A stretch of DNA of 64,000 bases, from the sequence record PP129558; one strand, given 5' to 3'. Each line of letters starts with the position of its first letter. The stretch's first letter is position 1. A program made the position numbers and the translations under genes. Below the pieces are notes generated by a model. It was not told the DNA's origin. It did not search any database and saw nothing but the letters and a program-made list of their open reading frames with translations. Shown piece after piece: positions 3,990-54,174 of the stretch. This DNA is from Escherichia phage vB_EcoM_01.

Positions 3990-5124
3990 TTAAAATTCTC
4001 CTCAATAAAAAGGGGCCGAAGCCCCTAGTTTCATCACATCTTGCAAGCTTCACAACCACCATCAGAATCTTCTTGTGCTAAAGAGTCTGCTGATTTTGTT
4101 CTACTATTAAGGTAATACAATGANNNNNNNNNNNNNNNNNNNNNNNNNNNNNNNNNNNNNNNNNNNNNNNNNNNNNNNNNNNNNNNNNNNNNNNNNNNNN
4201 NNNNNNNNNNNNNNNNNNNNNNNNNNNNNNNNNNNNNNNNNNNNNNNNNNNNNNNNNNNNNNNNNNNNNNNNNNNNNNNNNNNNNNNNNNNNNNNNNNNN
4301 NNNNNNNNNNNNNNNNNNNNNNNNNNNNNNNNNNNNNNNNNNNNNNNNNNNNNNNNNNNNNNNNNNNNNNNNNNNNNNNNNNNNNNNNNNNNNNNNNNNN
4401 NNNNNNNNNNNNNNNNNNNNNNNNNNNNNNNNNNNNNNNNNNNNNNNNNNNNNNNNNNNNNNNNNNNNNNNNNNNNNNNNNNNNNNNNNNNNNNNNNNNN
4501 NNNNNNNNNNNNNNNNNNNNNNNNNNNNNNNNNNNNNNNNNNNNNNNNNNNNNNNNNNNNNNNNNNNNNNNNNNNNNNNNNNNNNNNNNNNNNNNNNNNN
4601 NNNNNNNNNNNNNNNNNNNNNNNNNNNNNNNNNNNNNNNNNNNNNNNNNNNNNNNNNNNNNNNNNNNNNNNNNNNNNNNNNNNNNNNNNNNNNNNNNNNN
4701 NNNNNNNNNNNNNNNNNNNNNNNNNNNNNNNNNNNNNNNNNNNNNNNNNNNNNNNNNNNNNNNNNNNNNNNNNNNNNNNNNNNNNNNNNNNNNNNNNNNN
4801 NNNNNNNNNNNNNNNNNNNNNNNNNNNNNNNNNNNNNNNNNNNNNNNNNNNNNNNNNNNNNNNNNNNNNNNNNNNNNNNNNNNNNNNNNNNNNNNNNNNN
4901 NNNNNNNNNNNNNNNNNNNNNNNNNNNNNNNNNNNNNNNNNNNNNNNNNNNNNNNNNNNNNNNNNNNNNNNNNNNATTAATTGCTGCCATTTAAAATTCT
5001 CCTCAATAAAAAGGGGCCGAAGCCCCTAGTTTCATCACATCTTGCAAGCTTCACAACCACCATCAGAATCTTCTTGTGCTAAAGAGTCTGCTGATTTTGT
5101 TCTACTATTAAGGTAATACAATGA
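3973..5124. other. assembly gap: N run 4125-4975 flanked by identical ~150-bp sequence (3973-4124 = 4973-5124)
   Basis: Flanks are identical and each contains the nrdA stop, a terminator hairpin and the nrdB start; uncollapsed contig-end overlap. ORFs 4034..4990 and 4120..4980 are artefacts. Confidence 0.9.
5005..5027 (-). terminator. intrinsic terminator-like hairpin between nrdA and nrdB (duplicated at 4005-4027)
   Basis: Minus-strand RNA reads AGGGGCTTCGGCCCCT followed by TTTTTAT; GC stem with TTCG loop. Confidence 0.5.
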
Positions 5125-15199: not shown

Positions 15200-15382
15200 T
15201 TATTTAAAATAGCTTTCTAGAAAGTTGCTAATATTTACTACAGACTCACCCATGTAAATCCCTGCGAAACCGAAAACAAGCATACGTGGAATATTGAAAT
15301 ACCATTTATCTGCCGGAAAAGATGCCAGAATTACGATAGCAATTGCTATCAACATCATAAGAATTGTTGCTAAAATTATCAT
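15200..15382 (-). CDS. small membrane protein (60 aa, two hydrophobic segments)
   Basis: Start MIILATILMMLIAIAIV with GGAGG 6 nt upstream; the ORF-track version (15200..15487) extends into the duplicated segment. Confidence 0.4.
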   Translation of the reverse strand: MIILATILMMLIAIAIVILASFPADKWYFNIPRMLVFGFAGIYMGESVVNISNFLESYFK

Positions 15383-15626
15383 AAAAATGCCTCCAGGTAT
15401 TTTGCACAATGATAAGCTAAGAACATTTTTCCTCCTTATTCTGCTGGTTCCCAAGTGCCTGGGATCATTTCTCGAATACGATAGCAATTGCTATCAACAT
15501 CATAAGAATTGTTGCTAAAATTATCATAAAAATGCCTCCAGGTATTTTGCACAATGATAAGCTAAGAACATTTTTCCTCCTTATTCTGCTGGTTCCCAAG
15601 TGCCTGGGATCATTTCTCGAATACGA
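15332..15626. repeat. perfect tandem duplication of ~146 bp (15336-15480 = 15481-15625)
   Basis: Unit holds the ligase 3-prime end, an RBS and the start of the small membrane protein; same size class as the other duplications and the gap flanks. Confidence 0.85.
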
Positions 15627-19338: not shown

Positions 19339-19694
19339 TAGTATAATCCCTCGCTAAATAGGTCACGATCATGACCATTACGTTCGTAGTCAATCTGGTC
19401 TGCGTGTTTTGCAATAATGTATGCATCTTCACGACTCCACCAATTGTAGTATTGATCAATAAAACCTTGATTGTTTGGAAGACAATGCACTTTATCAAGC
19501 ACACCTGCTTCTTTCAATACATTCAATTGTGCTGATAATACAGGATTTGCATGTCGAACACAAGGAATAATTAACTCTTCACCATTATTCAAAATATATT
19601 TATTCGCAGCACAGACGATAACACGTTGCGCATAATGACCCTCACCAATCCAGGTAAGAGGTTGGTAACAAATGTTCTGATCAATACTACTCAT
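19338..19694 (-). CDS. hypothetical protein
   Basis: 118 aa; AAGGAGAA RBS; its 5-prime end lies in copy 1 of a tandem duplication. Confidence 0.4.
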   Translation of the reverse strand: MSSIDQNICYQPLTWIGEGHYAQRVIVCAANKYILNNGEELIIPCVRHANPVLSAQLNVLKEAGVLDKVHCLPNNQGFIDQYYNWWSREDAYIIAKHADQIDYERNGHDRDLFSEGLY

Positions 19695-19913
19695 TAAGTT
19701 TCTCCTTAATAGTGAACACGAATCATTTTAATACCATAACGCAGCATGGATTCTTTTGCAAGCATATAACACGTTGCGCATAATGACCCTCACCAATCCA
19801 GGTAAGAGGTTGGTAACAAATGTTCTGATCAATACTACTCATTAAGTTTCTCCTTAATAGTGAACACGAATCATTTTAATACCATAACGCAGCATGGATT
19901 CTTTTGCAAGCAT
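19617..19913. repeat. perfect tandem duplication of ~148 bp (19618-19765 = 19766-19913)
   Basis: Unit holds the last 18 codons of gene 19854..20210, the intergenic RBS and the first 26 codons of gene 19338..19694. Confidence 0.85.
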
Positions 19914-21351: not shown

Positions 21352-22003
21352 TTCTTTTTGCTCCTCTTTTTAGATTTCTCATACAAACCTAACACAGCCG
21401 CTTCTTTTGCACAAGTAGGAACTGAAGTCATTCCTCTTCTTTTTGCTTCTGGCAGTTGCAAAGTCCATATTCNGTCTCTTATNNNNNNNNNNNNNNNNNN
21501 NNNNNNNNNNNNNNNNNNNNNNNNNNNNNNNNNNNNNNNNNNNNNNNNNNNNNNNNNNNNNNNNNNNNNNNNNNNNNNNNNNNNNNNNNNNNNNNNNNNN
21601 NNNNNNNNNNNNNNNNNNNNNNNNNNNNNNNNNNNNNNNNNNNNNNNNNNNNNNNNNNNNNNNNNNNNNNNNNNNNNNNNNNNNNNNNNNNNNNNNNNNN
21701 NNNNNNNNNNNNNNNNNNNNNNNNNNNNNNNNNNNNNNNNNNNNNNNNNNNNNNNNNNNNNNNNNNNNNNNNNNNNNNNNNNNNNNNNNNNNNNNNNNNN
21801 NNNNNNNNNNNNNNNNNNNNNNNNNNNNNNNNNNNNNNNNNNNNAGAGACAGCTTTTACACACTTCAGGAAAGTCTTGATCATTTCTTTTTGCTCCTCTT
21901 TTTAGATTTCTCATACAAACCTAACACAGCCGCTTCTTTTGCACAAGTAGGAACTGAAGTCATTCCTCTTCTTTTTGCTTCTGGCAGTTGCAAAGTCCAT
22001 ATT
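21331..22003. other. assembly gap: N run 21481-21844 flanked by ~140-bp duplicated sequence
   Basis: Flanks near 21331-21473 and 21861-22003 are identical, with ambiguous bases beside the Ns; ORFs made of X codons are artefacts. Confidence 0.9.
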
Positions 22004-22617: not shown

Positions 22618-22730
22618 TTCTTACCTCCTTTGTTGTCAAAGTAGCTTACCAGAACATCGTGAACCACACACATGGCAAAAATCAGAACAATTGTTGCCAG
22701 GATTGGGTTCTCACTAATTAGTGCTATCAT
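22614..22730 (-). CDS. hypothetical small membrane peptide (38 aa)
   Basis: Internal ATG (MIALISENPILATIVLIFAMCVV) behind GGAGGTGG; the longer ORF-track version overlaps the upstream gene by ~100 nt. Confidence 0.25.
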   Translation of the reverse strand: MIALISENPILATIVLIFAMCVVHDVLVSYFDNKGGKK

Positions 22731-23037
22731 CTTTAACCACCTCCAATTGCCTTTCGAGTTTGACTCTGTTTGAGAACTGATAATGACACAACTTACATTG
22801 CATGTCAACAATCTGATCGTGATTTAACCCTACAATTTTAACTTCCTTTGCACCATCCCACTCCAAATACTCAAAGCCATCTAAATGATTACTCTTGTCC
22901 AACAGGAATGCTATCTGCTGCCATTCAATCTGAATATCATTTAAATGATATGCTGCACAGAAGATATCCTCATAGTAAAAGACGATCATTGTCATTGCTT
23001 CGTCTAGTACAACTACCTCTTGTCTTGTAAATCTCAT
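22714..23037 (-). CDS. hypothetical protein; first gene of the leftward transcription unit
   Basis: 107 aa; AGGAGG RBS; borders the divergent control region. Confidence 0.35.
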   Translation of the reverse strand: MRFTRQEVVVLDEAMTMIVFYYEDIFCAAYHLNDIQIEWQQIAFLLDKSNHLDGFEYLEWDGAKEVKIVGLNHDQIVDMQCKLCHYQFSNRVKLERQLEVVKDDSTN

Positions 23038-23039
23038 TC

Positions 23040-23517
23040 TAGCCTCCTAAACGCGTCTCTGACACACTTTTTATATATAAGATGATAAATCACCTTACCT
23101 AGTAAGTAAACTTGCTCTACGAGCCTCTTATGAAGCTTATGTTATAGGCTATACTATTACTACCTGTTTAAGCAAGGTTTTGCACACAGAAATAATTTTT
23201 TAATAAAACTCTTGACTTTTGTGTTCGAAGTATGCTACCCTAGAAATCTATTAACGAGCGCAGCGAGTTAAGGTTTTAGGTTGTTGATGTAGTACTCTGT
23301 ACTCAAGTACTGTACTCCGTACTAGATTAATAATTATTAAATATTAATAATAAATAATTATTAGATCTAACAAACAGGTACAGTGTATCAGAACTGGTAC
23401 GTACAGATCAACTTCTATCAATTAAAAATAAAATAATAAATTATTATAAATAATACTTGATCTATAGATCAGTATGAAGTACAGTACGTAACATCTTAAC
23501 AAGAATGGAGGTGTGCA
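23040..23517. promoter_or_regulatory. divergent intergenic control region; candidate replication origin or promoter hub
   Basis: 478 bp without ORFs between the leftward and rightward gene blocks; five closely spaced GTACT(C) direct repeats, two fully A/T tracts of ~40 bp, GTAC-containing motifs and a 12-bp palindrome GATCTATAGATC. Confidence 0.4.
23291..23325. repeat. iteron-like array of five GTACT(C) direct repeats
   Basis: AGTACTCTGTACTCAAGTACTGTACTCCGTACTAG read directly from the sequence. Confidence 0.6.
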
Positions 23518-23703
23518 ATGATTAGTGAGAATCCGTGCAAATGGCATCATGTGCCTATTAAAGATTGTATGTCTTGTAATCCACGTTCTATTTATAACAT
23601 TGCATCTTATGATGATGACAATGTGTTAGACGATGATGAAGGCTGGGAGGATTTAGATTGGACTGGTTATGAAACCAAAAGGGATAAAATTATTCCTAGT
23701 TGA
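23518..23703 (+). CDS. hypothetical protein
   Basis: 61 aa; GGAGG RBS; first rightward ORF. Confidence 0.3.
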   Translation: MISENPCKWHHVPIKDCMSCNPRSIYNIASYDDDNVLDDDEGWEDLDWTGYETKRDKIIPS

Positions 23704-26024: not shown

Positions 26025-26100
26025 TGGTTTGTAGTGTAGTCCGGTAGCACACGACACTTTGACTGTCGTAGGTTTGGTTCAAATCCAGACAGACCAGCCA
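26025..26100 (+). tRNA. tRNA-Gln (anticodon TTG)
   Basis: Acceptor TGGTTTG/CAGACCA, anticodon stem CGACA/TGTCG with loop CTTTGAC, T loop TTCAAAT, CCA. Confidence 0.7.
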
Positions 26101-26270
26101 TATAACGGAATTTAGCTCAGTTTGGTAGAGCGTACGCTTTGGGAGCGTAGGGTCGCAGGTTCGAATCCTGCAATNCNGACAGACCAGCCATATAACGGAA
26201 TTTAGCTCAGTTTGGTAGAGCGTACGCTTTGGGAGCGTAGGGTCGCAGGTTCGAATCCTGCAATTCCGAC
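26091..26270. repeat. 90-bp tandem duplication with ambiguous bases at the junction (26175, 26177), duplicating tRNA-Pro
   Basis: 26091-26180 equals 26181-26270 apart from ncn; copy 1 of tRNA-Pro (26106-26180) is 3-prime degraded by the ambiguous bases; probably a consensus artefact. Confidence 0.7.
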
Positions 26271-30188: not shown

Positions 30189-31754
30189 GTGTCAACAGGA
30201 AAAAGAACGTACACTAAAAAGTCAGAATACTGGGACAAAGGTGCTGCAAATAAAGCTGCTCTCTCTCCAACAAAAGAGGCAGAGAAAGAGAAAACGTTAC
30301 TCCTGTCACCTGAAATAGGAACGATCGGATTAAACTCAATCAAAGCATTTACGAATTTCATGCAACCTTATGAGACTCGTTTCCCAGAATGTATTCGCAC
30401 TTTTAAAGAGATGGGTGAAGACCCTGATGTAGCTACTGCTCTTGATGCTACATATATCTTTGTAGATAGAGCATTCTTTGATTTCAAGATAAAATACAAT
30501 GTAAACTCGGCAAAGTCAAGAAAAGCTGCTAAGTTTATTGATTACATGTTACGCAATATGCAAGCCCCTCTACGTCAATATGTTAGATCACTTTTGACAT
30601 ATAAGCAATATGGTTTTGCATTTGCAGAGAAAGTTTATGAGTTGGATGAAGATCCTAAAAGTCCTTACTTTGGGTATTGGCGATTAACCAAACTGGCTTT
30701 TAGACCACAAGACACTCTTCACATGGCTCAACCTTTTACATATTCGGCAGACGGACGTTCTATTCTATCTGTTAACCAGAATATCACCAATACGATGTTA
30801 GCTCCAGGCAATACAACTTTAGAAACTGGTATTAAAGAAATTCCTTTCAGTAAAGTTTTATTTGTTGGTAGCAACATTACAGAGAATAACCCACTAGGAG
30901 TTAGTCCGCTTTTAGCTGTATATCGTAGCTGGCGTGAAAAATCTCTTATTCAGGAATTTGAGGTTATTGGGGTATCTAAAGATTTAGGTGGTATGCCAGT
31001 TCTTAAGGTTCCAAGTGACATTCTAAACAGGGCATCTTTAGATCCTGCTGGGGATGAAGCACAATCTCTTCGAGTTCTCCAAGCCAACATCGCTAACCTG
31101 CACTCTGGTGAGCAAGCCTACATGGTATTGCCTTCAGACGTTTATGAAGGCACAGTGATGCGTCAATACGATCTTGTATTCCAAGGTGTTGATGGCACAG
31201 GTAAACAGTTTGACACTCAAGCACTAATCAAACAACGCAAGCTAGATATTTATAACCGCTTTGGTGCGGGTGTGTTGATTATGGGTGATGGTGATGCAGG
31301 AAGTTTTGCGCTTTCTGACAACAAACAAACACTATTGTCTCATTTTATTGAGCGAGATGTAGATATTGTTGTAGAAGCTATAAACTCTCAACTGATCCCT
31401 CAAACACTACGACTAAACAATATCTTCCTTTCTGATGAAGATATGCCTAAGTTTGTCAGTGGTGAAATGGGTGATCCTGATATTGAAGTAAATGCTAAAG
31501 CTATTCAGCAGTTGGTAGCCTCTGGTGCAATACCTTTAACCCCAGAAGTTATTAACGAGTTCCTTGAAAAAATTGGTTTTGAATATCGCATCCCTGACGA
31601 TATTGTTGCCAATAAAGAGAAATTCTTTGAATTCATGGATAACTATATGCCTGACAAAACTTCACGATCAGGAGATGGTTTAGCTACAGCGGGAACTGGA
31701 ACATCTGATACTGTTTCTGCTTTAGATCCTTCAGCACAAAACCTGTCGAATTAA
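30189..31754 (+). CDS. portal protein (putative)
   Basis: 521 aa; GTG start after GGAGG; directly downstream of terL, with size and position typical of a portal; no motif check possible. Confidence 0.55.
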   Translation: MSTGKRTYTKKSEYWDKGAANKAALSPTKEAEKEKTLLLSPEIGTIGLNSIKAFTNFMQPYETRFPECIRTFKEMGEDPDVATALDATYIFVDRAFFDFKIKYNVNSAKSRKAAKFIDYMLRNMQAPLRQYVRSLLTYKQYGFAFAEKVYELDEDPKSPYFGYWRLTKLAFRPQDTLHMAQPFTYSADGRSILSVNQNITNTMLAPGNTTLETGIKEIPFSKVLFVGSNITENNPLGVSPLLAVYRSWREKSLIQEFEVIGVSKDLGGMPVLKVPSDILNRASLDPAGDEAQSLRVLQANIANLHSGEQAYMVLPSDVYEGTVMRQYDLVFQGVDGTGKQFDTQALIKQRKLDIYNRFGAGVLIMGDGDAGSFALSDNKQTLLSHFIERDVDIVVEAINSQLIPQTLRLNNIFLSDEDMPKFVSGEMGDPDIEVNAKAIQQLVASGAIPLTPEVINEFLEKIGFEYRIPDDIVANKEKFFEFMDNYMPDKTSRSGDGLATAGTGTSDTVSALDPSAQNLSN

Positions 31755-31782
31755 AAATATTTAATATTTTTTAATTTTTCTA

Positions 31783-31816
31783 TTGACAAAACAACAAATA
31801 TCCTGTAGACTAAGAT
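31783..31816 (+). promoter_or_regulatory. candidate promoter (TTGACA with TAGACT/TAAGAT -10-like elements)
   Basis: Consensus -35 in the CTATTGACAAA context shared with the tRNA promoters; -10 assignment ambiguous. Confidence 0.35.
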
Positions 31817-51336: not shown

Positions 51337-54174
51337 ATGTCAACTACAATTACTAATTTACCCGAAACATCAAAAGTTAATGATTCTGATTACCTGGTTT
51401 TAGACCAACCTGATAAGACTGTTAAAAGCACAGTTTCCAACTTTCTTACTGACACTGGGGTGGTTTTAGCCACCCAGTTGAAAGNNNNANNNGGGNCTGA
51501 GTTAATAGGACACAGAAACGCTACGGTTGGTGCCACTCTGGATTCAATTGCAGTCCGCTCAGATCAATTTTCTACTATTCAGGAATGGGCATCATACCCG
51601 GCAAAGAATAAAATTTTAGCGGAGGGTACTTATACTCTTGACTCAACTCNTNNNNGTGTTGAATGTGAATCACTAACCACTGAGGGTGTAGTTANNNNNN
51701 NNNNNNNNNNNNNNNNNNNNNNNNNNNNNNNNNNNNNNNNNNNNNNNNNNNNNNNNNNNNNNNNNNNNNNNNNNNNNNNNNNNNNNNNNNNNNNNNNNNN
51801 NNNNNNNNNNNNNNNNNNNNNNNNNNNNNNNNNNNNNNNNNNNNNNNNNNNNNNNNNNNNNNNNNNNNNNNNNNNNNNNNNNNNNNNNNNNNNNNNNNNN
51901 NNNNNNNNNNNNNNNNNNNNNNNNNNNNNNNNNNNNNNNNNNNNNNNNNNNNNNNNNNNNNNNNNNNNNNNNNNNNNNNNNNNNNNNNNNNNNNNNNNNN
52001 NNNNNNNNNNNNNNNNNNNNNNNNNNNNNNNNNNNNNNNNNNNNNNNNNNNNNNNNNNNNNNNNNNNNNNNNNNNNNNNNNNNNNNNNNNNNNNNNNNNN
52101 NNNNNNNNNNNNNNNNNNNNNNNNNNNNNNNNNNNNNNNNNNNNNNNNNNNNNNNNNNNNNNNNNNNNNNNNNNNNNNNNNNNNNNNNNNNNNNNNNNNN
52201 NNNNNNNNNNNNNNNNNNNNNNNNNNNNNNNNNNNNNNNNNNNNNNNNNNNNNNNNNNNNNNNNNNNNNNNNNNNNNNNNNNNNNNNNNNNNNNNNNNNN
52301 NNNNNNNNNNNNNNNNNNNNNNNNNNNNNNNNNNNNNNNNNNNNNNNNNNNNNNNNNNNNNNNNNNNNNNNNNNNNNNNNNNNNNNNNNNNNNNNNNNNN
52401 NNNNNNNNNNNNNNNNNNNNNNNNNNNNNNNNNNNNNNNNNNNNNNNNNNNNNNNNNNNNNNNNNNNNNNNNNNNNNNNNNNNNNNNNNNNNNNNNNNNN
52501 NNNNNNNNNNNNNNNNNNNNNNNNNNNNNNNNNNNNNNNNNNNNNNNNNNNNNNNNNNNNNNNNNNNNNNNNNNNNNNNNNNNNNNNNNNNNNNNNNNNN
52601 NNNNNNNNNNNNNNNNNNNNNNNNNNNNNNNNNNNNNNNNNNNNNNNNNNNNNNNNNNNNNNNNNNNNNNNNNNNNNNNNNNNNNNNNNNNNNNNNNNNN
52701 NNNNNNNNNNNNNNNNNNNNNNNNNNNNNNNNNNNNNNNNNNNNNNNNNNNNNNNNNNNNNNNNNNNNNNNNNNNNNNNNNNNNNNNNNNNNNNNNNNNN
52801 NNNNNNNNNNNNNNNNNNNNNNNNNNNNNNNNNNNNNNNNNNNNNNNNNNNNNNNNNNNNNNNNNNNNNNNNNNNNNNNNNNNNNNNNNNNNNNNNNNNN
52901 NNNNNNNNNNNNNNNNNNNNNNNNNNNNNNNNNNNNNNNNNNNNNNNNNNNNNNNNNNNNNNNNNNNNNNNNNNNNNNNNNNNNNNNNNNNNNNNNNNNN
53001 NNNNNNNNNNNNNNNNNNNNNNNNNNNNNNNNNNNNNNNNNNNNNNNNNNNNNNNNNNNNNNNNNNNNNNNNNNNNNNNNNNNNNNNNNNNNNNNNNNNN
53101 NNNNNNNNNNNNNNNNNNNNNNNNNNNNNNNNNNNNNNNNNNNNNNNNNNNNNNNNNNNNNNNNNNNNNNNNNNNNNNNNNNNNNNNNNNNNNNNNNNNN
53201 NNNNNNNNNNNNNNNNNNNNNNNNNNNNNNNNNNNNNNNNNNNNNNNNNNNNNNNNNNNNNNNNNNNNNNNNNNNNNNNNNNNNNNNNNNNNNNNNNNNN
53301 NNNNNNNNNNNNNNNNNNNNNNNNNNNNNNNNNNNNNNNNNNNNNNNNNNNNNNNNNNNNNNNNNNNNNNNNNNNNNNNNNNNNNNNNNNNNNNNNNNNN
53401 NNNNNNNNNNNNNNNNNNNNNNNNNNNNNNNNNNNNNNNNNNNNNNNNNNNNNNNNNNNNNNNNNNNNNNNNNNNNNNNNNNNNNNNNNNNNNNNNNNNN
53501 NNNNNNNNNNNNNNNNNNNNNNNNNNNNNNNNNNNNNNNNNNNNNNNNNNNNNNNNNNNNNNNNNNNNNNNNNNNNNNNNNNNNNNNNNNNNNNNNNNNN
53601 NNNNNNNNNNNNNNNNNNNNNNNNNNNNNNNNNNNNNNNNNNNNNNNNNNNNNNNNNNNNNNNNNNNNNNNNNNNNNNNNNNNNNNNNNNNNNNNNNNNN
53701 NNNNNNNNNNNNNNNNNNNNNNNNNNNNNNNNNNNNNNNNNNNNNNNNNNNNNNNNNNNNNNNNNNNNNNNNNNNNNNNNNNNNNNNNNNNNNNNNNNNN
53801 NNNNNNNNNNNNNNNNNNNNNNNNNNNNNNNNNNNNNNNNNNNNNNNNNNNNNNNNNNNNNNNNNNNNNNNNNNNNNNNNNNNNNNNNNNNNNNNNNNNN
53901 NNNNNNNNNNNNNNNNNNNNNNNNNNNNNNNNNNNNNNNNNNNNNNNNNNNNNNNNNNNNNNNNNNNNNNNNNNNNNNNNNNNNNNNNNNNNNNNNNNNN
54001 NNGGTTATCTATGATAAGGAGACGCAAAGGGCGTATTCCCTACCTGCTGATATTGCCCCAGGTACTACTGCCATTAGTCTTAGTGCTGCTGTACTTGTGC
54101 ATTCGGCGGGTTCTGTAGACCTTGGGGAATTAGCTGTATCTTGTGATTTAAAAAGTAATGAGAACACACTATGA
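51337..54174 (+). CDS. tail fibre protein interrupted by an assembly gap
   Basis: N-terminus MSTTITNLPETSKVNDSDYLVLD is fibre-like; the interior is an N run, so length and frame continuity are unknown. Confidence 0.35.
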   Translation: MSTTITNLPETSKVNDSDYLVLDQPDKTVKSTVSNFLTDTGVVLATQLKXXXGXELIGHRNATVGATLDSIAVRSDQFSTIQEWASYPAKNKILAEGTYTLDSTXXXVECESLTTEGVVXXXXXXXXXXXXXXXXXXXXXXXXXXXXXXXXXXXXXXXXXXXXXXXXXXXXXXXXXXXXXXXXXXXXXXXXXXXXXXXXXXXXXXXXXXXXXXXXXXXXXXXXXXXXXXXXXXXXXXXXXXXXXXXXXXXXXXXXXXXXXXXXXXXXXXXXXXXXXXXXXXXXXXXXXXXXXXXXXXXXXXXXXXXXXXXXXXXXXXXXXXXXXXXXXXXXXXXXXXXXXXXXXXXXXXXXXXXXXXXXXXXXXXXXXXXXXXXXXXXXXXXXXXXXXXXXXXXXXXXXXXXXXXXXXXXXXXXXXXXXXXXXXXXXXXXXXXXXXXXXXXXXXXXXXXXXXXXXXXXXXXXXXXXXXXXXXXXXXXXXXXXXXXXXXXXXXXXXXXXXXXXXXXXXXXXXXXXXXXXXXXXXXXXXXXXXXXXXXXXXXXXXXXXXXXXXXXXXXXXXXXXXXXXXXXXXXXXXXXXXXXXXXXXXXXXXXXXXXXXXXXXXXXXXXXXXXXXXXXXXXXXXXXXXXXXXXXXXXXXXXXXXXXXXXXXXXXXXXXXXXXXXXXXXXXXXXXXXXXXXXXXXXXXXXXXXXXXXXXXXXXXXXXXXXXXXXXXXXXXXXXXXXXXXXXXXXXXXXXXXXXXXXXXXXXXXXXXXXXXXXXXXXXXXXXXXXXXXXXXXXXXXXXXXXXXXXXXXXXXXXXXXXXXXXXXXXXXXXXXXXXXXXXXXXXXXXXXXXXXXXXXXXXXXXXXXXXXXXXXXXXXXXXXXXXXXXXXXXXXXXXXXXXXXXXVIYDKETQRAYSLPADIAPGTTAISLSAAVLVHSAGSVDLGELAVSCDLKSNENTL
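51485..54002. other. assembly gap: scattered ambiguous bases (51485-51655) and N run 51695-54002
   Basis: Runs of n in the sequence; the ORFs across it on both strands are artefacts. Confidence 0.95.

Follow-up and report, generated by a model that had tools for sequence, protein, structure and literature searches.

Does the intergenic region at 23038-23517 of Escherichia phage vB_EcoM_01 (sequence record PP129558) mark a place where replication begins, or one from which genes are transcribed in both directions? The window that contains it, i.e., the whole stretch of DNA analysed here, is 64,000 nucleotides (nt) long, and positions refer to this window unless a relative is named. It belongs to the genus Phapecoctavirus and thus to the phAPEC8-like Escherichia coli myophages of the subfamily Stephanstirmvirinae, whose genomes measure ~150 kb. 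Phapecoctaviruses are common E. coli phages, and several of the papers that we retrieved present isolates as candidates for phage therapy or biocontrol. An earlier reading of the sequence, hereafter the original prediction, had proposed that the region is an origin of replication composed of iterons beside an A/T-rich unwinding element, and that it must also hold the divergent early promoters. With moderate confidence, and judging by sequence and conservation, we read it as a conserved divergent control region for early transcription. In this model, a leftward promoter (P_L) would serve the block that begins with a gene for a 107-amino-acid (aa) protein, and two tandem rightward promoters (P1 and P2) would serve a few small genes and the tRNA block behind them. 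A/T-only tracts of 19 and 36 bp may act as upstream (UP)-like elements for P1 and P2, respectively. A second long A/T tract and a decayed copy of P2 may have arisen by partial tandem duplication of the module formed by A/T tract and P2 in the phAPEC8-type clade, and local amplification may have produced an array of GTACT repeats in the P1 leader.

Putative promoters at a conserved divergent junction

In the list of open reading frames (ORFs), the region (~480 bp) is a head-to-head junction between the first leftward gene (22714-23037, - strand; 107 aa, phrog_14390) and the first rightward gene (23518-23703, + strand; 61 aa, phrog_26411). The sole ORF inside it, of 42 aa, is spurious. On the rightward side, the 61-aa gene is followed by two further small genes and then by a block of 11 tRNA genes. 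A 3-kb query around the region was 99.3% identical to phage PNJ1809-36 and found 62 records with at least 80% coverage. The region itself was present at full length and 95-99% identity in 61 phapecoctavirus records, and 64 records carry at least 80% of it at 93-99% identity. With the 107-aa protein as an anchor, we found homologous junctions in Justusliebigvirus PHB05, Citrobacter phage Tr1 and Klebsiella phage phi1_175008, and in all three the same position is intergenic. In the clade of phiWec179 and PsgM04F only the left 240 bp match, and an extra 70-aa gene is present. Scans of IMG/VR with the leader box described below and both flanking proteins returned one phiWec179-like contig only.

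Five lineages share one order of elements: the P_L block, P1, a leader box ~15 nt further on, a variable spacer, an A/T tract, P2, a ribosome-binding site (RBS) and the gene. P_L, P1 and P2 are thus positionally conserved in five Stephanstirmvirinae lineages, from which we infer that they are active, and the expectation that the region holds divergent early promoters is borne out to this extent. The study of phage rV5 (PMC3606486) describes promoters that face both ways at the equivalent junction in a related subfamily, with an early Srd-like gene next to it.

The candidate P_L (23082-23110, - strand) consists of TTTACT, a 17-nt spacer and TATCAT, reaches 9 of 12 matches in a consensus scan and lies in a block (ATCACCTTACCT...GTAAA) that is kept in PHB05 and Tr1. 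The putative P1 (23212-23241, + strand) combines TTGACT (23212-23217), an 18-nt spacer and the extended -10 sequence TGcTACCCT (23233-23241); TTGAC and TATGCTACCCTA are invariant in the five lineages. About 10-30 nt downstream of its presumed start site lies the leader box TTAAC-GAGCGCAGCGAG-TTAA (23251-23271, + strand), in which CGAGCG[C/A]AGCGAG (23255-23267) is invariant in six sequences. These sequences give a weak consensus hairpin with compensatory changes in two pairs. The putative P2 (23457-23485, + strand) is placed ~245 bp downstream of P1 and consists of TTGATC (23457-23462), a 17-nt spacer and TACAGT (23480-23485). It was recognised by homology to relatives, where the -35 hexamer is TTGACT or TTGACC: the counterparts are TTGACT-18-TAGAGT in phiWec179, TTGACT-17-TAGAGT in PHB05 and TTGACC-17-TACACT in the Klebsiella phage. 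The analysis thereby yields testable coordinates for three putative promoters, a conserved leader box and UP-like tracts.

For genome-wide statistics we used a complete relative, phage AV126 (OR352956.1, 149 kb). Its genome holds only two copies of the P1-type promoter with its box. GAGCGNAGCGAG occurs once, in the leader box, and the second P1-class promoter (~71,420, - strand; TTGACT...TATGCTACCCTAA with the box GAGCGATAGCGAG) has a variant with a 2-nt spacer. Downstream of this second copy comes an ordinary small gene with a leader of 130 nt, and no A/T tract is present. From this setting we conclude that P1 behaves as a promoter class and not as part of an origin; it looks like a small class with a conserved leader element. 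No intrinsic terminators were found in the region, and an Rfam scan at E <= 1 found nothing in 23038-23517; its matches were the downstream tRNA and one sub-threshold hit on the opposite strand of that tRNA. A structured RNA in the P1 leader was considered and rejected: the 274-nt fold has z = -3.5, but it rests on palindromic GTAC pairings and an A/U hairpin. In phAPEC8, a compensatory change is absent from the 10-bp long-range repeat that links 23307-23316 with 23478-23487.

A/T tracts and the putative duplication of P2

The original prediction had noted two fully A/T tracts of about 40 bp, and we confirmed both, at 38 and 36 bp. They are the two longest A/T-only runs of the whole genome, for which composition predicts ~4e-4 runs of at least 38 bp. 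Tract 1 (23326-23363; 23323-23369 with its TAGAT/ATCTA flanks) is the longest, and tract 2 (23420-23455), the second-longest, stops 1 nt short of the P2 -35 hexamer. A 19-bp A/T-only tract (23190-23208), the fifth-longest such run in AV126, is separated by 3 nt from the P1 -35 hexamer downstream, the junction reading CTC-TTGACT. Four of the seven longest A/T runs of AV126 have a TTGAC/TTGAT hexamer 1-3 nt downstream, namely tract 2 (at P2), the 19-bp tract (at P1), the counterpart of the tract at 31749-31779 in the window and one at 79.8 kb. A good promoter sequence, TTGACA-17-TAGACT at 31784, directly follows the tract at 31749-31779 (31 bp, the third-longest in the window); the unit spans 31749-31813 and mirrors tract 2 and P2 within the same genome. 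In the five lineages, the P2-linked tract measures 35-55 bp and ends 0-3 nt before the -35 hexamer, and its sequence is not conserved. As composition rather than sequence is kept across genera, a role as UP elements fits these tracts, and they would be promoter-upstream elements in the position of UP elements.

UP elements are known from strong phage and rRNA sigma-70 promoters, such as the T5 early promoters and rrnB P1. The arrangement resembles these in having an A/T-only tract 1-3 nt upstream of the -35 hexamer at P1, at P2, at the promoter at 31784 and at P2 in four other lineages. It differs from them in its weak core hexamers and in tract 1, which lacks a functional core promoter.

Tract 1 and its flanks form a near-perfect palindrome with 21-bp arms. 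Its predicted DNA hairpin (-7.6 kcal/mol, z = -4.0) was matched in stability by none of 200 shuffles, and the palindrome could, going by its sequence, be extruded as a cruciform. In register, the two tracts are 72% identical (repeat family D1), and the similarity extends into their flanks. On the left, CCGTACTAGATTAA at tract 1 parallels GGTACGTACAGATCAA at tract 2, and CCGTACTAGATT parallels GGTACGTACAGATC; on the right, TTAGATCTA...GGTACAGTG at tract 1 parallels CTTGATCTA...AGTACAGTAC at tract 2. Behind tract 1 lies what appears to be a decayed copy of the P2 core (P2', 23361-23384, + strand), whose TTAGATCTA...GGTACAGT parallels CTTGATCTA...AGTACAGT of P2 (families D1 and D7) and whose hexamers have only ~12 nt between them. 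Tract 1 may thus be part of a decayed tandem duplicate of the P2 module, confined to the phAPEC8-type clade. The insertion that sets this clade apart from the other lineages consists of exactly the GTACT array and tract 1, which supports a duplication. Tract 1 is missing in the sister lineages; the phiWec179/PsgM04F clade, which is without both the array and tract 1, keeps one A/T tract and several GATC/AGATCT sites.

Variation within the phAPEC8 type was examined in an alignment of twelve genomes. In nieznany, a 66-bp deletion (~23382-23447) removes two GTAC copies and most of tract 2. One GTACT copy is mutated in phAPEC8, and UP17 and anhysbys show slippage of TTAAGGTTT units. The perfect 12-bp palindrome of the original prediction, GATCTATAGATC, is present at 23459-23470, inside the -35 hexamer and spacer of P2, but it carries little weight: the window contains 22 perfect palindromes of this length, which puts this one at chance level, and it is broken in five of twelve relatives (tuntematon, nieznany, UP17, Schickermooser and phAPEC8).

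Several observations weigh against a role in transcription control. We scored promoters with a matrix derived from 17 early promoters of the phage itself, which have the form TTGACA-16-TAAGAT and a GGGCGGGAA...TTCCCGCC stem-loop behind them. P1 ranks in the top 0.1% of genome positions and far below these canonical early promoters, with 6.1 bits compared with 12 bits at the 99.99th percentile of the genome, which is the range of strong consensus promoters. The canonical early promoters themselves carry no long A/T tracts. P2 has only 8 of 12 consensus matches and was missed by the consensus scan, and the ten promoter-like sites in the region are not above the number in shuffled sequence (6.9 +/- 2.5). 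Tracts 1 and 2, at 36-38 bp, are longer than the classical UP element of ~20 bp, as are tracts of up to 55 bp in the relatives. No usable promoter follows tract 1, but all 64 full-length relatives retain this strongly palindromic tract. The ten-copy island of the most avoided tetramer, GTAC, argues for a sequence-specific function, and no binding protein was found among the proteins scanned. Finally, literature searches for an origin or a transcriptome in this phage group found none.

The GTAC island

The five tandem GTACT(C) repeats that had suggested iterons are present at 23292-23323. The array as a whole (23291-23323) reads AGTACTCT GTACTCAA GTACT GTACTCC GTACT and is found in the phAPEC8-type clade only. 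Its copies start at 23292, 23299, 23307, 23312 and 23319, with spacings of 7, 8, 5 and 7 bp, and three of the five have the form GTACTC. It would lie ~45-77 nt downstream of the P1 start site. Tandem Repeats Finder, at a score of at least 30, reported no array at these repeats. The further GTAC-containing motifs that had been noted correspond to five more copies, starting at 23378, 23397, 23401, 23479 and 23484. Two of these belong to GGTACGTACAGATC (23397-23409), the left flank of tract 2, which combines two GTAC in overlapping register with one GATC and is deleted in nieznany. Two others, at 23479 and 23484, overlap the -10 hexamer of P2 (GTACAGTAC), which also has GATC copies in its -35 hexamer and spacer, and one GTAC lies in the decayed P2 copy.

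This density stands out because GTAC is otherwise rare in these genomes. The window contains 62 copies where 186 are expected, the lowest ratio of any palindromic tetramer, and AV126 contains 145 where 442 are expected (0.33), which makes GTAC the most depleted of all 256 tetramers, ahead of GGCC (0.39) and CCGG (0.42). A 50-kb sample of E. coli K-12 shows no such depletion (observed/expected 0.90), so that the depletion looks like phage-specific avoidance of restriction sites. Against this background, the ten copies in 200 bp of the region have a Poisson probability of 9e-15, and the cluster is unique in 149 kb, where other 250-bp windows hold at most five. GTACT, counted on both strands, occurs 36 times, compared with 102 +/- 11 in shuffles, and nine of these 36 are in the region.

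Repeat family D7 connects AAGTACTGTAC in the array with AAGTACAGTAC at P2, and duplication may have generated some of the island as a by-product. The array most plausibly represents either lineage-specific short repeats that a protein may bind, as an operator or roadblock that would affect P2 or read-through from P1, or such a by-product. Neither PHROGs and Pfam nor a reading by eye of the neighbouring translations provided a candidate repressor or initiator for it.

Operators made of short tandem repeats include the met-boxes of MetJ (8 bp), the heptads of the omega repressor (7 bp) and the GNACT units of TrpR (8 bp). As in these systems, several units of 5-8 bp, each with a palindromic core, follow one another head to tail between a promoter and a gene. 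Unlike them, the spacing is irregular, and no ribbon-helix-helix protein or other repressor was identified nearby with PHROGs, Pfam or reading by eye. In its periodicity (5-8 bp) and palindromic core, the array resembles tandem short-repeat operators more closely than iterons.

Is the region an origin of replication?

Nothing in the sequence demonstrates a start of replication at this site. Cumulative GC skew had been suggested as a check. AV126 consists of four transcription blocks, with divergent junctions at 73.1 kb and at 144.0-144.5 kb, the counterpart of the region, and convergent junctions at 37.4 and 108.65 kb. The global minimum of its cumulative skew does fall at 144 kb, but the curve turns at 37, 73, 109 and 144 kb, i.e., at every block junction. 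As all four junctions flip, transcription explains the minimum. A bidirectional origin at the region predicts that blocks A and D are co-directional with replication and blocks B and C head-on. Coding-strand skew is 0.076 in A (rightward from the region) and 0.159 in D (leftward from it), compared with 0.149 in B and 0.134 in C, so that the co-directional blocks show no excess and there is no replichore component. GC skew cannot locate the origin in this phage group, a conclusion that the authors of the rV5 study also reached for that related phage (PMC3606486).

The alternative that survives best is an origin primed by transcription, of the type of the T7 primary origin or T4 oriF/oriG, in which transcription from P1 would run into tract 1 and then tract 2, and the RNA-DNA hybrid or opened duplex would load a T7-like primase-helicase. 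The T7 primary origin consists of promoters 1.1A and 1.1B and an A/T-rich segment, and T4 oriF and oriG of a middle promoter and a downstream unwinding element. Such an origin could coexist with promoter function, and we regard it as unlikely but not negligible. In its favour, the conserved P1 points into tracts 1 and 2 and, if active, would read into an easily melted segment like that of T7 and T4. These tracts are the two longest A/T-only runs in the genome, the region ranks second in A/T content among 200-400-bp windows, tract 1 is a palindrome capable of forming a cruciform, and the global skew minimum falls here. The replication enzymes of the phage group also resemble those of T7: related rV5-like phages have genes for a family A polymerase and a gp4-like primase-helicase but no recognised initiator (PMC3606486). 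However, transcription accounts for the skew minimum, no unwinding element accompanies the second P1-class promoter, most of tract 2 is gone in nieznany and tract 1 is absent from the sister lineages. Unlike in T7 and T4, the putative unwinding segment would lie 80-175 nt from the start site, and the promoters are of the host type instead of depending on a phage RNA polymerase or on MotA. Larger non-coding regions that are equally A/T-rich exist elsewhere in the genome and are no worse as candidates. The region had been described as the only sizeable ORF-free stretch, which holds within the window but not genome-wide, as AV126 has larger ones at 79.4-80.25 kb and 90.97-92.53 kb.

Less probable still is the classical iteron origin of the original prediction, in which a phage or host initiator would bind the GTACT repeats and melt the adjacent A/T tract. 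As in the iteron origins of lambda-like phages and of plasmids P1, F and R6K, direct repeats adjoin an A/T-rich tract at a unique non-coding site: the array ends 2 bp before a 38-bp tract of 100% A/T, and the GTAC island is highly non-random and unique in the genome. An analogous divergent junction in the distantly related Salmonella phage KE23 (Seunavirus) combines an A/T-rich stretch of ~90 bp with two 19-bp direct repeats (TATCAATTTGAGNNTAGGC), 23 bp apart, followed by a gene for a 105-aa winged-helix "replication initiation protein" (phrog_8102, E = 9e-36). The KE23 junction is a better origin candidate than the region in the window. Whereas iterons are phased units of 17-22 bp, the repeats here are 5-bp cores at irregular intervals of 5-8 bp that are not helically phased. 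The array is absent from the phiWec179/PsgM04F clade, PHB05, Tr1 and the Klebsiella phage, and the homologous regions hold no repeat arrays in its place. A tblastn search with the KE23 winged-helix protein found no homolog in the full AV126 genome (best E = 1.6). PHROGs and Pfam, applied to seven to ten neighbouring proteins, detected no DNA-binding domain; with these searches and tblastn of AV126, and with most genes unannotated, no Rep- or O-like initiator was detected close to the region or elsewhere in the genome. Nor does the allele of the 107-aa gene track the array: phiWec188 combines the window-type allele (92.5%) with an array-less region. Tract 2, for its part, is accounted for by its promoter position, as it abuts the -35 hexamer in every lineage. 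The repeat form, the failure to find an initiator, the conservation pattern and the skew thus all speak against an iteron origin with an unwinding element, in whose favour nothing speaks apart from how the sequence looks.

Other motifs associated with replication or phage transcription were considered and set aside. One relaxed DnaA-box match (TTTTGCACA, 23179-23187) was rejected, as the genome has 16 of these, a chance-level number, and no match to the IHF consensus was found in the region. A cluster of four GATC copies in 150 bp was set aside because several other loci equal it. A T4-type late promoter motif (TATAAATA) lies inside tract 2 and is one of only 14, which are scattered over the genome.

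Alternative readings of the GTAC repeats and the genome ends

The GTACT array and the palindromic 38-bp tract could together form a lineage-specific cis element for a GTAC-specific phage protein, i.e., an initiator, a nickase or a repressor, a proposal to which we attach about as little probability as to the iteron origin. On this view, in a phage that has cleared GTAC from the rest of its genome and whose virion DNA may bear a GTAC-directed modification, the island would amount to a previously undescribed type of origin or to an early switch under epigenetic control.

A related proposal, which we consider very unlikely, is that a modification- or restriction-type protein of phage or host with GTAC specificity reads the island, so that it would act as a modification-sensitive switch on P2. 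The overlap of two GTAC copies with the P2 -10 hexamer fits this, as does the depletion of GTAC in the phage (0.33) and not in the E. coli sample (0.90). A further indication comes from the record of phage BI-EHEC, which was produced from nanopore reads only with Guppy 4.0.11, Flye and Medaka (PMC8686590). Between OL505078.1 31501-81500 and window 1-49618, 27 of 45 aligned GTAC sites differ, mostly towards ATAC and in some cases as indel forms such as GTATAC, and 25 of 44 differ from AV126, i.e., 57-60% of sites. Other tetramers in this comparison are changed at 6-7% on average and at 25% in the next-worst case, and GTAC is changed at 14% both between the window and AV126 and between the window and DIJ07P1. 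The changes also hit both tRNA-Pro copies (26132 and 26222). The strand asymmetry and the indel forms suggest a base-calling error at a modified GTAC motif in the BI-EHEC DNA preparation. A modified GTAC would fit selection against GTAC by restriction systems, an idea that is unproven. The genome also encodes a DNA methyltransferase-like protein (phrog_799). Against the proposal, the anomaly is confined to one record and may reflect methylation by that host or a real purge of sites, the methyltransferase-like protein has no Pfam match, and half of the GTAC copies are far from promoter elements. Should the island turn out to have one of these roles, as an origin or as a switch that responds to modification, the Stephanstirmvirinae would have their first defined cis-acting element for replication or regulation. 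The methyltransferase-like gene lies at 118.1-118.6 kb of AV126 (- strand), ~2.4 kb before the start of the window; its 169-aa product is annotated as an N6-adenine methyltransferase (phrog_799, E = 3e-59) and matches no Pfam family.

The GTACT units also recall the operator half-sites of the host trp repressor, and an operator array for TrpR was therefore compared with the real operators of strain MG1655. The same units occur in those of mtr (TGTACTCGTGTACTGGTACAGTG), trpR (CGTACTCTTTAGCGAGTAC) and trp (GAACTAGTTAACTAGTAC), the GTACT unit being identical to the mtr and trpR half-sites, and 23299-23312 (GTACTCAAGTACTG) matches the mtr operator at 12 of 14 positions. The register (18-bp GNACT-N8-AGTNC) does not fit, however: successive half-sites are 9, 7 and 6 bp apart where 8 bp are required, and the best 18-mers of the region match 6 of the 8 core positions, as do more than 400 positions in the genome, whereas 7-8 are matched at the four primary operator sites (and 4 in a second, shifted register of mtr). 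We therefore rejected TrpR as the reader of the array, and consider it highly improbable.

A genome terminus or packaging site at the region is the least credible of these explanations: the nieznany record starts 28 bp inside the adjacent gene and the terminase gene lies ~4.5 kb downstream, but other records of the same study start elsewhere, and the 342-bp direct terminal repeats of the sister-genus phage BME3 lie in a different non-coding region (PMC12210895), whose homolog in AV126 is 90,971-92,529, a stretch beyond the window, so that the genome ends are probably there and not in 23038-23517.

Neighbouring genes and other non-coding stretches

Both genes that border the transcription-control region proposed here have a recognisable start signal. 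The 61-aa gene has the Shine-Dalgarno sequence GGAGG (23507-23511) before its ATG at 23518 (together 23507-23520, + strand), an RBS that is annotated in ESCO13. The leftward ATG of the 107-aa gene is preceded by TAGGAGG (about 23041-23048, - strand), read from the sequence. The two proteins belong to PHROG families of unknown function, and no Pfam domains were found in them. A homolog search with the 107-aa protein found six close relatives. Its C-terminal 40 residues (22714-22840; IVGLNHDQ.VD..CKLC.YQFSN..KLERQLEVVKDDS) are almost invariant in homologs that are 55% identical overall, and the 3' end of its gene overlaps the next small ORF. An AlphaFold model of this protein, with a predicted local distance difference test (pLDDT) score of 41, was discarded as unusable.

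Runs of N, i.e., masked or unresolved sequence, occupy 4124-4975, 21483-21844 and 51695-54002 of the window; the second of these interrupts genes ~1.2 kb to the left of the region. Tandem Repeats Finder reported two-copy tandem duplications with 100% matching at 15332-15626 (145-bp unit), 19618-19913 (148 bp) and 26088-26264 (90 bp). The 145- and 148-bp duplications are exact, while the two 90-bp copies, compared directly, are not identical. The 90-bp duplication carries a second tRNA-Pro, which AV126 has once. All three could be real or could be assembly artefacts.

The two larger ORF-free stretches of AV126 have repeats of their own. The one at 79.4-80.25 kb is the most A/T-rich 200-400-bp stretch of the genome, is poor in ORFs and contains AAATTTAAAGTTTA repeats and two Fur-box-like sequences, AATGATAATGATTCGCATT and AATGATAATCATTCTCATT. 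That at 90,971-92,529 is 1.56 kb long and ORF-free, with several Fur-box-like repeats such as ATGATAATTATTCTCATT. Between them, at 80.9-90.5 kb, ~17 near-identical intergenic modules were found, one before each small early gene, and each is made up of a consensus promoter (TTGACA-16-TAAGAT/TAAACT), the GGGCGGGAA...TTCCCGCC stem-loop and an RBS.

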